Source: Spirochaetota bacterium (GTDB lineage Bacteria > Spirochaetota > GWE2-31-10). From it: a stretch of DNA of 64,000 nucleotides. Both the position numbers and the translations under genes were made by a program. Shown here one piece after another: positions 875 to 59,498 of the stretch. The notes under the pieces were generated by a model. The model saw only the letters and a list, made by a program, of their open reading frames with translations, ran no database searches and was not told the DNA's origin. The first letter of the stretch is position 1; every line of letters starts with the position of its first letter. The stretch spans positions 7,943 through 71,942 of the forward strand of contig JBGUUT010000126.1 in the NCBI GenBank assembly GCA_045133795.1, given 5' to 3'.

Positions 875-901
875 TTATTTGTCTCCTTTATTTTTTGATT
901 A

Positions 902-1957
902 TTATATATGGTCTATAGTAAGAACTGTTTTCGATTTTGGACTTCCCCAAATTCTTTCAAATTGAGTTATAAATTGATTCGATATTTCAGGATTTAATTC
1001 AGAATTTATATAAAATACAAATGAATTCCTTGTTACTTCCGTGGCTGTATACAATGCGATATACAAAATGTTGTCACAGCGGATATAGGAAAAATACGGA
1101 ATATCATCATAGTATTTTAAACAGAGAGAAGCTTCTTGTCTGTTCATGGCGTTTTTAAATTCAAGATTATTTGAAAATGTATCTTTTAGTTCTTGATATT
1201 TCTTTTTTGTTTCTGTTGCTTTATCAAAGAAATCTTTTGTATCACCATTTCTGATATACGAAAATCTAGCTTTAACTAAATTTGATTCCGGTGATAACGC
1301 CATTATTCTGATTCTGGCACTTTGTGTATTAAGTAAGTTATTTTTAAAAATATCTAATGCTTCGGTAGATGTTTCACCTGTCATGCTTAAAATATCAATC
1401 TCTGTTGCTCTAGAAAATGCTGTTTTAATTATATCTTGGACTTTTGGGTCTATTCGTCTTCCGAGAAGATGAAGTCCCTTTTTATCTTCTCTGTTAAAAG
1501 CTATATTTTCACAATATTTATTATGTTCATATATTCTAAAAATATGCTCAACACTTTGCCGTATCTCATTTTTTGTTAATTCTATATCTTTTGAAATAGG
1601 ATTCATATTTGGATATGGATATGCAATAACATTCATTGCTCCTATATCAAAAGGAATCGAATCCTTAGAATTACCTGCTCTCAAAATAATACAAGGTTTA
1701 CCAGTCATGTGGCGGATTCCTAATTCATAAAAAACATTAGGATTTAAATCTGTAATGTCACATACAACTAAATCGGCTTCTTTAAGATTATGTACTATAT
1801 CAGTTGTAATGATATTTCGAGGAATATCAATTGGTAATAAAATATTGAAGTCATCTCCCAGAGCAGGAGTAAGTATATTATCTTGAACATATCTAGAACG
1901 TTTTCGTTCGGGCGAATCCGCTTCTTTCAATGTACAAATAAAAAACGCTGTTTTCAT
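902..1957 (-). CDS. Protein with an N-terminal nucleoside 2-deoxyribosyltransferase-like (SLOG/Rossmannoid) domain and an uncharacterised roughly 220-aa C-terminal domain
   Basis: 351-aa ORF with RBS AAAGGAG. The N-terminus MKTAFFICTL...EADLVVCDITDLNPNVFYELGIRHMTGKPCIIL matches the NDT/SLOG pattern (buried beta-strand start, D-x-x-D, NPNV-x-YELG with the Glu, GKP). The C-terminal region matches nothing I recognise. Confidence 0.55.
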   Translation of the reverse strand: MKTAFFICTLKEADSPERKRSRYVQDNILTPALGDDFNILLPIDIPRNIITTDIVHNLKEADLVVCDITDLNPNVFYELGIRHMTGKPCIILRAGNSKDSIPFDIGAMNVIAYPYPNMNPISKDIELTKNEIRQSVEHIFRIYEHNKYCENIAFNREDKKGLHLLGRRIDPKVQDIIKTAFSRATEIDILSMTGETSTEALDIFKNNLLNTQSARIRIMALSPESNLVKARFSYIRNGDTKDFFDKATETKKKYQELKDTFSNNLEFKNAMNRQEASLCLKYYDDIPYFSYIRCDNILYIALYTATEVTRNSFVFYINSELNPEISNQFITQFERIWGSPKSKTVLTIDHI

Positions 1958-2126
1958 TCTTATTTCTCCTTTATGTTTTGATTATTTTTACTTTCCATTC
2001 CGGAAAGTTTTTTTCTTTTGACCGGGAGTTCGACTTAGCTTTTTGCCGTTTTTTCCTGATGGGAAAAACTTCGTTCGTTCGCAATGCGAACTCACCTTAG
2101 CTCACGTTCGTCACTCCACGAGAACA

Positions 2127-2227
2127 CCTCTCATAACTGCATGAGAAATGCTCTCATAGCATTATGAGAATCTCTCTCATGCCGTTATGAGAACGTCTTC
2201 ACTCGTACTATGAGAGCCCCTCTCATG
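2127..2227. repeat. Tandem array of four imperfect 20-25 bp palindromic units (CTCTCATA-N5-7-TATGAGA). It may be operator-like and lies in the 5' region of the 902..1957 gene.
   Basis: Read directly: cctctcataactgcatgagaa, gctctcatagcattatgagaa, tctctcatgccgttatgagaa, then the inverted-orientation unit tatgagagcccctctcatgc. Additional dyads lie just upstream: GTTCGCA|TGCGAAC at about 2078-2092 and GTTTTTCC-tgat-GGAAAAAC at about 2049-2070. Confidence 0.6.
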
Positions 2228-2228
2228 C

Positions 2229-2963
2229 TTAATCATCGATTGCGTTACAAGCGTAGTTGTAAGTAATCTCACGTATCGAAGCGAGATTTGCTCCGCCGCT
2301 GTAGTTCGTTTTGATTTTCACGGTTACGGCTCCGGCAGGTACTGTCGACGGTACACGTGCGATTATTTGGCTCGGTTTGTTTACTGTCAGTCGGCGTGTT
2401 ACTCTGTGTTCTGCTCCCGTAGAGTCCACGATAAAGATTCCTTGATTTTGGTCGGCTTCATCGGTGATTTTGATTTTTTCGCCGTCGATTACGATGTCGT
2501 CGCCGATTGTGATTGTGCCGTCTTTGAGTCCTGTGGCACCGTCAGTAATCGCCGTGATTCGTGCAGAGGCTGATGTAGCTCCCATTACTTTCACAGATAT
2601 TCCGTCAAGTGTGCTTCGTAAATCTGCTGTCGGTACAAGGTCTACCGTGCGTTTGTGAGTAGCTGGGTCGAAGCTCGCTGCTTCATTTTCCCAAACTCCG
2701 CTTACTCTCGGCGTGATTTGCACTAAGCCGTCACGGAAACTTGAGCATTCTTGGATAAATGCTTTTACTGCATTGTCACGCAGGTTAAGAATATTGAGGA
2801 TTGTGTCCTTGCGGTATTCGCTTCGTTCGCTGACGATTCTTTCCGCTACGTCTTCGTTTGTCAATGTAGCACCGTTAAGGTGAACATCGGCGATACAGTC
2901 TTTGTCATTGTCTTTTGTGAGTGCGTTCGGTCGTAAGTAGACCTGCCATTGGTTGTTTGCCAT
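2229..2963 (-). CDS. Bacteroidetes-type HU-family DNA-binding protein (HU-HIG N-terminal domain plus DUF4469/Ig-like C-terminal domain)
   Basis: 244-aa ORF with RBS AAAGGAG. The N-terminus MANNQWQVYLRPNALTKDNDKDCIADVHLNGATLTNEDVAERIV follows the HU-HIG pattern (basic start, N-x-LT-x-D, Y/C-x-A-x-V) and FDPATHKRTVDLVPTADLR follows the DUF4469-like pattern. Local GC is clearly higher (about 48%) than the flanks (about 33%). Confidence 0.55.
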   Translation of the reverse strand: MANNQWQVYLRPNALTKDNDKDCIADVHLNGATLTNEDVAERIVSERSEYRKDTILNILNLRDNAVKAFIQECSSFRDGLVQITPRVSGVWENEAASFDPATHKRTVDLVPTADLRSTLDGISVKVMGATSASARITAITDGATGLKDGTITIGDDIVIDGEKIKITDEADQNQGIFIVDSTGAEHRVTRRLTVNKPSQIIARVPSTVPAGAVTVKIKTNYSGGANLASIREITYNYACNAIDD

Positions 2964-3031
2964 AGTAAATACTCCTTTGATTTCTTCTTTCCTTATGTGT
3001 AGTAAAGGCTGGAAGAAAGCAAAGAGAATGT

Positions 3032-3047
3032 AAAAAAAAAAAAAAAA
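3032..3047. repeat. A16 homopolymeric tract (T16 on the minus strand), 69-84 bp upstream of the 2229..2963 gene start
   Basis: 16 consecutive A residues counted in the sequence. Confidence 0.9.
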
Positions 3048-3226
3048 CTGTCAAATTTATTGATAATATATAGGAGTAAAAACATTTTTTTGGGCGTGCA
3101 GTTGGCTTCTTTTCTCCTCTTTGGCTGCCGGCACGCTCTTTTTAGGAAAACGGAAAGGTGAAAGAGGGAAGATGAGAAATGAGAATGAACTCACCGAGAG
3201 GAGCGTCCTTTTCTCTTGGGAGTTAT

Positions 3227-3276: not shown

Positions 3277-3470
3277 CCAACTTTGAACCAAAGTTGCATT
3301 TTAACGCCGGCTATGCCGGCAAAAAGAGCCTTAAACCTAAGTTGGTTTATAAAACTTTAAACCAAAGTTGCATTTTAACGCCGGCTATGCCGGCAAATAA
3401 AGCTCCAAACCTTGCAAAGTTTTAGAAAAGTTTTGTCCCCAAAACGACCATAACTCGCCGGCTATGCCGG
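3277..3470. repeat. Mosaic direct repeats (about 45-bp unit, present 2.5 times). Each unit carries an AT-rich hairpin (CAACTTTG..CAAAGTTG) and a GC hairpin (GCCGGC-TAT-GCCGGC).
   Basis: aaccaaagttgcattttaacgccggctatgccggcaaa occurs at about 3288 and again at about 3358. cgccggctatgccggcaaaag occurs a third time at about 3447, and the aactttaaacc modules are also repeated. Confidence 0.7.
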
Positions 3471-3518
3471 CAAAAGGAACTTTAAACCCACGTGGTTTGA
3501 AAAGCTTTGAAGAAAGCT

Positions 3519-57407: not shown

Positions 57408-57456
57408 TAAAAAAGCATACCGTAAAGTTTTTCGCTTTTAGGTATGCTTTTTTTGT
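57408..57456. terminator. Rho-independent terminator. It is copy 1 of a duplicated terminator and is bidirectional in form.
   Basis: Stem AAAAGCATACC/GGTATGCTTTT followed by a T-run. A near-identical copy lies at 57716-57759. Confidence 0.65.
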
Positions 57457-57465
57457 TGCAGTTAA

Positions 57466-57573
57466 TTATTTATTTAGCTCGGCGTAAAGTTCAGCTTTAG
57501 CTTTTATTACAGTGTCGATTAATGTGTCCGGTGCAACGATTGTTTTCTCATTGTTGGGAAAAACTTCGCTCAT
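57466..57573 (-). pseudogene. Duplicated fragment of the proS 3' end (last roughly 30 codons), with a fortuitous ATG
   Basis: The stretch at about 57471-57560 is roughly 85% identical to 57771-57863. Its translation MSEVFPNNEKTIVAPDTLIDTVIKAKAELYAELNK compares with the ProS C-terminus ...NNEKTIVALDALIDTVVKAKAELYAELNK. Confidence 0.55.
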
Positions 57574-57595
57574 GTATTACGTACATTCGCCACAG

Positions 57596-57712
57596 CCGGA
57601 ACGATGTTATTCCATTAAGCTCGAACGATGTGTTTTAGCTAGCCGGAACGATGTGTTTCATTAAGCTGGAACGATGTGTTTCATTAAGCTGGAACGATGT
57701 GTTCACGTTGCG
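57596..57712. repeat. Tandem repeat of about 23 bp x 5 (consensus GGAACGATGTGTTTCATTAAGCT), contiguous with no spacers
   Basis: Copies read at 57596, 57622, 57644, 57668 and 57691. The last copy is degenerate. Confidence 0.75.
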
Positions 57713-57715
57713 AAT

Positions 57716-57759
57716 AAAAAAGCATACCGTAAGTTTCTCGCTTTTAGGTATGCTTTTTT
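57716..57759 (-). terminator. Rho-independent terminator of proS (copy 2)
   Basis: Same stem as at 57411-57451, with a T-run on the minus strand. Confidence 0.7.
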
Positions 57760-57770
57760 GTGTAGTTTAA

Positions 57771-59498
57771 TTATTTGTTTAACTCAGCGTAAAGTTCGGC
57801 TTTGGCTTTTACTACAGTGTCGATTAAAGCGTCCAAGGCAACGATTGTTTTCTCATTGTTGCCAATAGTCACTTCTGCACCGCCGTTTTGCAATGATTTT
57901 TCGCCTAATGCAATTTTTATAGGAGAACCGATAAGGTCTGCGTCTTTAAATTTAAATCCCGGAGATGCGTTTCTGTCATCATAAAGAACTTCTATTCCGG
58001 CAGCTTTCAATTTTGCATAAATGTCTTCACAGATTTCTTTTACGTTGTTTTGGTTGTCTTTGTGCAATCCTATCAACTCTACTTCAAACGGAGCGATAGA
58101 AATAGGCCATAAGATTTTGTCTTCATCGGCACGAACTTCCAAAACACTTGCAAGAAGACGACCGACACCGATTCCGTAACATCCCATAATCATCGGAACT
58201 TCTTTTCCTTCTTTATTTAGGTACATACATTTCATAGATTGTGTGTATTTTGTACCGAGTTTAAAAATATTTCCGATTTCGATACCACGTTTTACTGTCA
58301 AAGGTTTACCGCAACATGGACAAGCTTCACCTTCGTTTACACTGGAAATATCCAAAACTTCGTCAGTATTCCAGTCTCTTCCAAAATTTGTGTTTTTTGT
58401 GTGTACATCAATTTTGTTTCCGCCGGCAATCAGATTGCTAGAGTTGGCTGCAGACTCATCTGCTATGATTCGAACTTTTTTACCGTTGAAAGTCTGTCCT
58501 ACAGGTGAGGCAAAACCTTTTACTATACCGGCAGCTTCAAGTTCTTCGTCAGTTGCAAGGAAAATTGTTTTTGCTTTCAAGTAATTGCGTAGTTTTGTTT
58601 CGTTTATTTCCAAATCTCCGCGAATTGCACAGAATGCCAATTCTTCTCCGGTAGAATAAACAACGGCTTTTAAAGTGTGGTCGGCTGTAGTTCCCAAGAA
58701 TGTTGCAACTTCATCGATAGTTTTTTGGTTCGGTGTAGCGACATCTTCCATCGACAACATTTCTTCTTTCAAATAATCACGTTTTGCTTTTGCAACTTCT
58801 TTGTTTGCACGGTAGTCGCATGATGAACAAATTACGAGTGTATCTTCACCGGCTTCTGTTACAGCCATAAATTCATCAGCTCCGGAACCTCCCATCATTC
58901 CGGTATCGGAAGAAACTGCAAGGGCGTTGATTCCGCAACGTTTGAAAATTTTATGATATGCATCGTACATTTCTTGATAATATTTTTCTAAATCTTCGTA
59001 AGATTCATGGTAAGAGTAAGCGTCTTTCATTACGAATTCACGTACTCGGATTAAACCGCCTCGAACTCTCGGTTCATCACGGAATTTAGTTTGTAATTGG
59101 TAAACTTTCATCGGTAATTGCTTGTAAGATGTCACGGCATAACGAATTAAATCGGTAACGATTTCTTCGTGTGTCATGCTCAAAACCATTTTTCTGCCGC
59201 TTCTGTCATCAAAGCGAAGTAATTCTTCTCCGACCCTTTCGTAGCGACCGGACTCTGCCCAAAGTGAAGCCGGTACTGCTACAGGCATATTGATTTCTTG
59301 ACAGCCGGTAGCGTCCATTTCTTCACGAATTATATTTTCTATTTTCTTTAAAGCTCGCCAAGCGATAGGTAAGTAAGTAAATATACCGGCTCCGACTTGT
59401 TTTACATAGCCGCCGCGTAATAATAATTTGTGACTTTTTAAATCTGCGTCTTTTGGTGTTTCTTTTGTTGTTTTTAATAAATATCCGGAAAGTTTCAT
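57771..59498 (-). CDS. proS: Proline--tRNA ligase (bacterial type with an editing INS domain)
   Basis: Class II motifs, the length (575 aa), and an N-terminus typical of ProS (MKLS.YLLKTTKE). Confidence 0.9.
   Translation of the reverse strand: MKLSGYLLKTTKETPKDADLKSHKLLLRGGYVKQVGAGIFTYLPIAWRALKKIENIIREEMDATGCQEINMPVAVPASLWAESGRYERVGEELLRFDDRSGRKMVLSMTHEEIVTDLIRYAVTSYKQLPMKVYQLQTKFRDEPRVRGGLIRVREFVMKDAYSYHESYEDLEKYYQEMYDAYHKIFKRCGINALAVSSDTGMMGGSGADEFMAVTEAGEDTLVICSSCDYRANKEVAKAKRDYLKEEMLSMEDVATPNQKTIDEVATFLGTTADHTLKAVVYSTGEELAFCAIRGDLEINETKLRNYLKAKTIFLATDEELEAAGIVKGFASPVGQTFNGKKVRIIADESAANSSNLIAGGNKIDVHTKNTNFGRDWNTDEVLDISSVNEGEACPCCGKPLTVKRGIEIGNIFKLGTKYTQSMKCMYLNKEGKEVPMIMGCYGIGVGRLLASVLEVRADEDKILWPISIAPFEVELIGLHKDNQNNVKEICEDIYAKLKAAGIEVLYDDRNASPGFKFKDADLIGSPIKIALGEKSLQNGGAEVTIGNNEKTIVALDALIDTVVKAKAELYAELNK

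Follow-up and report, generated by a model that had tools for sequence, protein, structure and literature searches.

The centromere arrays of plasmids F and P1 lie directly past the genes of their binding proteins, sopC after sopB and parS after parB. The repetitive extragenic palindromic (REP) sequences and bacterial interspersed mosaic elements (BIMEs) of enterobacteria are bound by HU, IHF and gyrase and act as mRNA stabilizers; they consist of a single shared unit that RAYT transposases have spread across the genome. Here we describe a tandem palindrome array in a 64,000-nt stretch of DNA from a Spirochaetota bacterium (assembly GCA_045133795.1, contig JBGUUT010000126.1, positions 7,943–71,942; the whole stretch is called the window below). 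It lies immediately 3′ of a gene for a protein of the HU-HIG clade, and arrays of the same kind, with other half-sites, lie past members of this gene family in spirochaetes and Bacteroidales. Our preferred reading, to which we give a probability of about 0.45, is that the array is a private, cis-linked, DNA-level binding site of the adjacent HU-HIG(Ig) protein that stands before a slot for variable cargo genes.

The array resembles sopC and parS in that tandem inverted-repeat units lie directly 3′ of the gene for the (here putative) binding protein, and in that site and protein are both specific to the system. It differs from them in having no ParA-type neighbour (the nearby genes include a rhodanese gene, SMC and a TIR/SLOG-like open reading frame [ORF], and no ParA is among them), in a unit of 23 rather than 43 bp, and in a protein with the HU fold instead of the ParB or ribbon-helix-helix fold; moreover, the HU-HIG genes are multi-copy and chromosomal, and binding is here proposed only. 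With the REP/BIME elements it shares palindromic units of alternating orientation that lie in tandem 3′ of genes, and it differs from them in that each gene copy has its own private sequence, the units recur at a constant 23 bp and one gene family is concerned.

The gene in question encodes a 244-aa protein with an HU-DNA_bdg domain (PF14848, residues 6–128, E = 6.8e-26) followed by a DUF4469 Ig-like domain (PF14734, residues 136–232, E = 4e-24), and residues 5–230 are homologous to PDB 4FMR (E = 3e-17). These matches place it in the Ig subclade of the HU-HIG clade as described by Burroughs et al. (PMC5499826). The array (Table 1) begins 2 nt past the TAA stop codon of this gene, and consists of about 5.5 units with an exact period of 23 bp, which was found both by Tandem Repeats Finder and as repeat family D1 (copies at 2120, 2143, 2166 and 2212). 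In gene sense each unit is a 20-bp palindrome, TTCTCAT-N6-ATGAGAG, with a 3-nt linker. Read on the plus strand, ten regular half-sites, ATGAGAA and CTCTCAT in turn, start at 2118, 2128, 2141, 2151, 2164, 2174, 2187, 2197, 2210 and 2220, so that their start-to-start spacing is 10 and 13 bp by turns; an extra degenerate half-site is present at 2105–2111. The array forms the right-hand part of the 271-bp spacer between the stop of the HU-HIG gene and the start of the next ORF (here called the SLOG ORF), and its composition is like that of the HU-HIG gene (48% GC), in a background of about 35% GC.

An initial annotation of this DNA, made from the sequence alone, had pointed out dyads in this spacer, and these are present well above chance: TCTCAT-N3–9-ATGAGA has three matches in the 64-kb window, all at 2129–2192, where shuffles predict 0.07, and none of 100 shuffled windows contained three or more. 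It had described four units about 21 bp apart, the fourth of them flipped. The spacing is in fact 23 bp and the number of units about 5.5, and the flipped unit is an artefact of the degenerate half-site CTTCACT at 2197–2203, which hides an unbroken alternation. No dispersed copy of the window motif was found elsewhere in the 64 kb, and assignment to the REP/BIME group was rejected on that ground and because the half-site is private to each locus.

The linkage of gene and array was followed in a survey with one genome per species, comprising 56 loci (30 spirochaete and 26 Bacteroidales), in which the Bacteroidales proteins are 26–35% identical to that of the window. The array census covers the 54 loci with enough 3′ flank (30 spirochaete and 24 Bacteroidales), searched up to 300 nt past the stop codon. 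A palindromic array of 23- or 24-nt period lies past the stop codon in 39 of them, 23 of the 30 spirochaete and 16 of the 24 Bacteroidales loci, and several additional census loci have sub-threshold period-23 remnants. The period is 23 in 35 of these arrays and 24 in 4, and onset is usually no more than 60 nt past the stop codon. Half-sites are wholly different between loci (TTCGTATCG, CTCCCT, CTTAGAT, CCCAAT, TCAAAG, CGACTAAC, CCACA, CTTGG and others). A blind scan of 423 kb for periods of 15–35 found 47 arrays of period 23, 6 of period 24 and a handful of others, nearly all directly 3′ of an HU-HIG coding sequence or of a 3′ fragment of one. More arrays are present in annotated records of Parabacteroides distasonis (loci L062 and L068), on metagenome contig L064, and on oral Treponema denticola-like contigs (L069–L071), where an LRR_5 gene comes next. 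Two candidates were set aside, a “24-nt array” in L049 that is a coding repeat and L066, a eukaryote-like contig with a chance similar motif. The tie of the array to the HU-like gene, which the initial annotation had suspected, is thus strongly supported as genetic linkage, gene and array occurring together across two phyla.

There are at least four HU-HIG copies in the genome of Treponema sp. HNW and at least seven in that of OMZ 840, and downstream genes are diverse, as in a lineage-specific expansion with no conserved operon partner; Burroughs et al. (PMC5499826), the one detailed analysis found, describe the family as without conserved linkages. The arrays are not described in the searchable literature, as far as searches on DUF4469, HU-HIG and tandem hairpins could show. 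We also note that the array of L064 (10488–10620, minus strand) shares its TTCTCAT/ATGAGAG half-sites with the array of the window. Its HU-HIG protein is of Bacteroidales type, 33–36% identical to Bacteroidales members and with no detectable similarity to the window protein at E = 1e-3, and the shared half-sites would reflect convergence or else the transfer of an array type.

The nearest relatives of the window HU-HIG protein are in Treponema and other Spirochaetota, and comparison with these separates the array from the gene downstream of it. In L006, whose protein is 93% identical, synteny holds on both sides (window 2141–3115 and 1–894 align), and the slot that runs from the array to a conserved lipoprotein gene contains a 233-aa membrane protein gene and lacks both the SLOG ORF and the 1958–2104 spacer. 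L065 (92% protein identity) has the same gene and array and then a diversity-generating retroelement (avd, template repeat [TR] and reverse transcriptase), and L001 and L002 (97%) lie in a different genomic context with a Flg_new surface protein downstream. In each of these comparisons homology stops no more than about 10 nt from the last array unit. Because these loci keep gene and array with other downstream genes, the SLOG ORF is one of several alternative cargo genes, and on this comparative evidence the HU-HIG gene, and not the SLOG/TIR-like ORF, is the one to which the array belongs. The slot occupies 902–2104 in the window, 998–1759 in L006 and 1143–2990 in L065. More generally, the next gene is co-oriented with the HU-HIG gene in 31 of 40 loci and convergent past some arrays; downstream genes are varied and often encode surface proteins: 6 of 27 are LRR_5 genes, and Flg_new and fimbrillin genes also occur.

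The array had been assigned in the initial annotation to the leader of the SLOG gene, as a multi-operator specifically regulating that gene. It does lie 156–271 bp upstream of the SLOG start codon, with no promoter-like site between, but L006 keeps the array without the ORF, and arrays of this kind stand before dozens of unrelated genes, or convergent ones; the assignment was wrong, and the operator idea, largely refuted by the comparative data, is hardly credible now. Its second suggestion, a junction left by insertion of foreign DNA, holds in that cargo replacement begins at the array’s distal edge, and fails in that the array predates the insertion. The arrangement is similar to integron attC sites, which are also palindromic elements, conserved in structure and variable in sequence, at the 3′ end of an ORF and at a cargo junction. 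An attC site, however, is a single imperfect palindrome of 57–141 bp with strand-specific extrahelical bases and is used by the IntI integrase, and neither feature is seen here. A variable region of a diversity-generating retroelement with its hairpin was also considered and rejected, since the C-lectin-type motif that the L065 TR encodes has no relation to the 3′ end of the HU-HIG gene; the window holds no long repeat of the gene’s 3′ end that could be a template repeat for it. The C-terminal C-lectin-type motif of the L006 lipoprotein resembles the L065 TR.

Aligned on their dyads, the units are 20-bp palindromes with fixed outer edges, a free centre of 4–8 nt and a 3-nt linker; arm and centre lengths vary, and their sum is always 23. 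Covariation was measured over seven arm pairs, with 20 independent arrays contributing one unit each to an alignment without gaps. Of the arm-pair cells 92.9% are paired, where shuffles give 52.6%; the observed percentage (unlike the covariation) is inflated by picking the best-pairing unit of each array, although consensus units agree; slid controls are about 40% paired. There are 63 double-sided changes where 19.9 are expected, and the covariation score of 1.106, against 0.284, was reached by none of 500 shuffles. The palindrome appears to be under selection.

Array and protein are also inherited together at the 3′ end of the gene. Paralogues within Treponema sp. HNW and OMZ 840 are 97–99% identical over their first ~205 residues (90–98% in DNA), yet only 44–77% over the last 39, and they are unrelated past the stop codon, arrays included; in L008, L009, L011, L012 and L014 of these genomes the DNA is 90–98% identical from the ATG to about +590 and then diverges. 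By their first 200 residues the proteins cluster by genome, whereas the C-terminal parts cluster by array type. Thus L023, L024, L025 and L061, with 93–98% mutual identity over the first 200 residues, have three array types among them, and conversely a TTAGAT-type array and a C-terminal loop SGTxxP are common to L024/L025, L059 and L017, whose N-terminal parts are 55–72% identical. When these four are aligned, the TTAGAT/ATCTAA half-sites show no variation, in contrast to the palindrome centres and the neighbouring coding DNA, both of which have diverged. Similarly, the loop FSTGNKT is paired with TTCCCC arrays both in L035 and in a displaced 3′ fragment in L028. Array types are thus old, with a conserved sequence, and they pass on with the only variable part of a protein the rest of whose gene is homogenized within each genome, the pattern being one of concerted evolution with a protected 3′ module. 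Half-site sequence, beyond structure, matters. The co-inheritance of C-terminus and array resembles a cognate specificity pair, but this is suggestive only.

The palindromes could act in RNA instead of DNA. The array would then be transcribed as part of the HU-HIG mRNA, 3′ untranslated or intercistronic, and would fold as a row of 7-bp stem-loops or as a single long, imperfect foldback; it might keep off 3′ exonucleases, hinder the loading of Rho or direct processing, and by doing so stabilize the HU-HIG message and fix its abundance relative to the downstream one, and the protein might bind the hairpins. We consider this somewhat unlikely and rank it second to the DNA-level reading. In most loci the array starts 0–60 nt past the stop codon on the gene’s strand, and because no terminator separates gene from array in the window (a canonical sense terminator lies past the array in 6 of 37 loci only), a 3′ untranslated identity is plausible. 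For the 278-nt sense RNA of the window the folding energy is −93 kcal/mol (z = −7.6), and for its antisense −82.4; structure is kept across different sequences. REP/BIME arrays stabilize mRNA, and RNAs derived from REP are among the ligands of E. coli HU. In a strand-specific RNA helix, however, G·U should be tolerated far above A·C, and the sense strand should fold better. The in-stem mismatches of 36 arrays in Watson-Crick-only registers comprise 41 G·U, 33 A·C and 133 others, the last being commonest and as expected for unfiltered mutation, and by array the split between G·U and A·C is 10 versus 11. Energies of the array alone are alike for the two strands (sense lower in 19, antisense in 16, p = 0.26), and array GC and AT skews are about zero, whereas the neighbouring coding sequence has an AT skew of 0.21. 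A 2:1 excess of G·U obtained with a G·U-permissive register was register bias that vanished in Watson-Crick-only registers, and a borderline result on 150-nt segments did not survive these controls either. Compensation at the variable positions of single units, a test meant to choose between two hairpin registers, was absent, the own right arm pairing no better than any other. Rfam 15 gave no match in the window, with only sub-threshold generic miRNA-like hairpin matches on the array, and its only matches among 20 related loci were to flanking TD-2 repeats. Furthermore, independent hairpins have no need of an exact 23-nt period, the array of L038 lies 5′ of the gene, and half-site sequence beyond pairing is conserved between diverged species. 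Strand symmetry and the fixed helical period therefore fit dimer sites on double-stranded DNA, or cruciforms, better than independent RNA hairpins, and both are as the initial annotation’s idea of sites for a dimeric DNA-binding protein would have them. An intrinsic terminator was rejected, since scanning found no minus-strand terminator-like site, nor any promoter-like one, in 1958–2228; so was a CRISPR array, since the arms are only 3–6 nt apart in a 23-nt unit and there are no unique spacers of similar length. The type III toxin-antitoxin pair ToxI/ToxN is similar in its tandem repeats adjoining a protein gene and in a repeat sequence private to each system. ToxI, however, lies upstream of its toxin gene and has 36-nt units that act as strand-specific RNA cut by the nuclease partner, while the present arrays lie downstream, with 23-nt strand-symmetric units and no nuclease. 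Iterons of theta-replicating plasmids (about 22–23 bp) are a likeness in period, near two helical turns, and in having system-specific sequences and an adjoining gene for the cognate protein, but they are direct repeats bound by winged-helix Rep proteins at an origin, and here there are palindromes, an HU-fold gene and no sign of a replicon.

Two other explanations give the array neither a binding nor an RNA role, and we regard both as improbable. It might be a recombination junction or hotspot, a fragile boundary at which cargo is exchanged and gene conversion between paralogues ends. Homology between the window, L006 and L065 does end no more than about 10 nt from the last unit with different cargo beyond, paralogue nucleotide identity declines toward the array, and copy number differs between near-identical loci (L001 and L002, L017 and L018, L023 and L032). 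In L028 (3855–5150) and L034 (3855–5140) an Rpn/Transposase_31-like gene is flanked by duplicated HU-HIG 3′ ends (the last 45 codons), each followed by a different array, of TCAAAG and TTCCCC type, a layout that suggests recombination at the gene-array boundary. A junction of this kind leaves unexplained a period of 23 or 24 across two phyla and half-sites that are more conserved than coding DNA, and no recombinase is consistently nearby. Rpn/Transposase_31 genes adjoin L028, L029 and L034, but two other Rpn genes have no array, and a link to these genes was rejected; a phage origin was likewise rejected, as no relative was found in viral contigs and phage records gave one weak match. Alternatively, the array could be a self-maintaining satellite, a tandem quasi-palindrome kept symmetric by template switching in replication and homogenized by slippage, which hitch-hikes without function on an often-duplicated gene family. 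The strand-symmetric pattern, a mismatch spectrum like that of raw mutation, the lack of compensation within units, the polymorphic copy number and an orphan 23-bp array at window 57594–57703 would all be expected of it. What it does not account for is the persistence of the array past the same gene family in Bacteroidales and spirochaetes, with proteins only 26–35% identical, the fixed position at the stop codon and fixed period of 23 or 24, and the conservation of array types across species.

The HU-HIG promoter may be switchable. The spacer of the candidate promoter TTGACA-16-TACATT (Table 1) is a T tract that in close relatives is T12, T13, T15, T16 or at least T17, and that differs in length between two contigs encoding an identical protein, lengths to be read with the caveat that metagenome assemblies are unreliable at homopolymers. 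In layout it is a textbook slippage-controlled promoter, and it is a candidate for phase variation of that type. In Parabacteroides, inverted repeats of 20–24 bp (CCTTAT...ATAAGGG) surround segments of 260–420 bp just upstream of HU-HIG genes (L067 1110–1407, L052 2562–2868, L053 2461–2917); some P. distasonis members of the family lie just downstream of such repeats, and the L067 copy adjoins a site-specific integrase. These segments resemble invertible promoters. T. denticola TDE_2259, an HU-HIG family gene with the same architecture as the window locus, and the adjacent lrrA (TDE_2258) were changed by log2 −5.2 and −5.7, respectively, in one mutant clone (PMC12724145); the joint drop is compatible with co-transcription from a switchable promoter, an interpretation that is ours and not the conclusion of those authors. 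The locus-specific regulator genes UpxY/UpxZ of phase-variable Bacteroides capsule loci are comparable in being multi-paralogue first genes past a phase-variable promoter, upstream of surface-structure genes and with a cis element of their own. UpxY, however, is NusG-like and acts on the 5′ leader, while HU-HIG proteins have another fold and their element is a tandem palindrome array past the gene.

Taken as the DNA-level site of the adjacent protein, the array could work as follows. Its 20-bp palindromes, 23 bp apart, would act mainly as double-stranded or cruciform-prone DNA, on which HU-HIG(Ig) dimers would sit side by side. Gene, variable C-terminal ~40 residues and array form one inherited module heading a cargo slot, filled by the TIR/SLOG-like ORF here and, in other loci, by a surface protein of LRR or fimbrial type or by a diversity-generating retroelement. 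Standing between the cargo gene and the phase-variable promoter of HU-HIG, the occupied array may then serve as a roadblock or mark specific to its locus, and its occupancy would set the amount of transcription that reaches the cargo. In a stronger form, which we think rather doubtful, HU-HIG(Ig) proteins and their private arrays would be cognate pairs with specificity in the variable C-terminal Ig loop, a locus-addressing system in which each paralogue controls its own locus. Several observations weigh against a protein-bound DNA site. Burroughs et al. (PMC5499826) point out that the Ig domain of PDB 4FMR fills the cleft where DNA would canonically lie, and they are sceptical of classical DNA binding. 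Since near-identical HU domains have unrelated half-sites, specificity would have to reside in the last ~40 residues. Co-inheritance of C-terminus and array could be due to physical linkage and the boundaries of gene-conversion tracts, and a location straight past the stop codon on the gene’s own strand is also the layout of a 3′ untranslated element. Finally, 15 of the 54 census loci are without a clear array, and there remain the 5′ array of L038 and the orphan of the window.

Table 1. Features of the HU-HIG locus, in window coordinates.
Feature	Position	Strand	Basis or remark
Tandem palindrome array	2105..2228	-	Window repeats; same layout 3′ of homologues in 39/54 loci; arm covariation
HU-HIG (Ig subclade) gene	2229..2963	-	PF14848, PF14734, PDB 4FMR
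Last ~39 codons of HU-HIG gene	2232..2348	-	Only strongly variable protein segment in relatives; co-inherited with array type
Low-GC cargo ORF (“SLOG”, TIR/SLOG-like)	902..1957	-	Weak TIR-effector match; variable slot past array
Sigma-70-like promoter candidate TTGACA-16-TACATT	3027..3054	-	Promoter scan; spacer is T16 tract 3032–3047
A-tract and hairpin ACTTTCC-N5-GGAAAGT, 32 nt	1982..2013	.	25–35 nt upstream of start codon of downstream gene
Hairpin GTTTTTTCC/GGGAAAAAC	2048–2069	.	Window-specific spacer, not conserved array
Perfect palindrome GTTCGCA/TGCGAAC	2077–2091	.	Window-specific spacer, not conserved array

The SLOG ORF is 29% GC and has no Pfam or NCBIfam match; PADLOC gave the weak TIR-effector match (8e-7). 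In the spacer between it and the array, the hairpin and the perfect palindrome that the initial annotation had placed before the dyads are both present, but they are outside the conserved array, and they have no counterpart in syntenic L006 (which lacks 1958–2104) or in the other loci. The A-tract and small hairpin between array and ribosome-binding site is 100% identical in L001 (6038–6069) and L002 (5175–5206), at the equivalent position before a different downstream gene, and is also found in L069 (4400–4425); the loci with this element carry different downstream genes. On the plus strand of the window it resembles an intrinsic terminator in the terminator scan, and the opposite-strand reading in these loci is that of a canonical one. 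A leader with ribosome-binding site, AATAATCAAAAxATAAAGGAGA, about 22–35 nt long, occurs at window 882–903 and 1965–1986 and at L065 1137–1174, before the SLOG ORF and the lipoprotein gene of the window and the lipoprotein gene of L065; it could mark the edge of a cassette or serve as a translation leader common to these genes.

Upstream of the HU-HIG gene, three tandem hairpin-rich copies of ~75 nt (AACTTTGAACCAAAGTT...GCCGGCTATGCCGGC) lie at window 3279–3489, and relatives of this element are scattered in the flanks of L001, L002, L004 and L007; TD-2 RNA (RF03162) repeats fill the flanks of other Treponema loci. The orphan array at 57594–57703 has the unit GGAACGATGTGTTTCATTAAGCT, with stems that depend on G·U pairs on the plus strand, and no adjoining HU-HIG gene. 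It sits downstream of an LRR_5/Flg_new gene, and its flanks (57449–57556 and 57754–57861) are a direct duplication of the proS 3′ end and terminator.

The family of HU-HIG proteins is large and is expanding fast in Bacteroidales and in some spirochaetes. A conserved cis partner would supply this family with a concrete, testable candidate ligand, and would connect it to phase-variable surface proteins (LrrA/BspA-type, fimbrillin) and to defence and cargo genes. The arrays account for the fragmentation of these loci in metagenome assemblies, and they flag a hotspot of cargo-gene exchange. If the cognate-pair reading is true, they would belong to a widespread, previously unrecognized system at phase-variable surface-protein and defence or cargo loci of gut and oral Bacteroidales and of Treponema.

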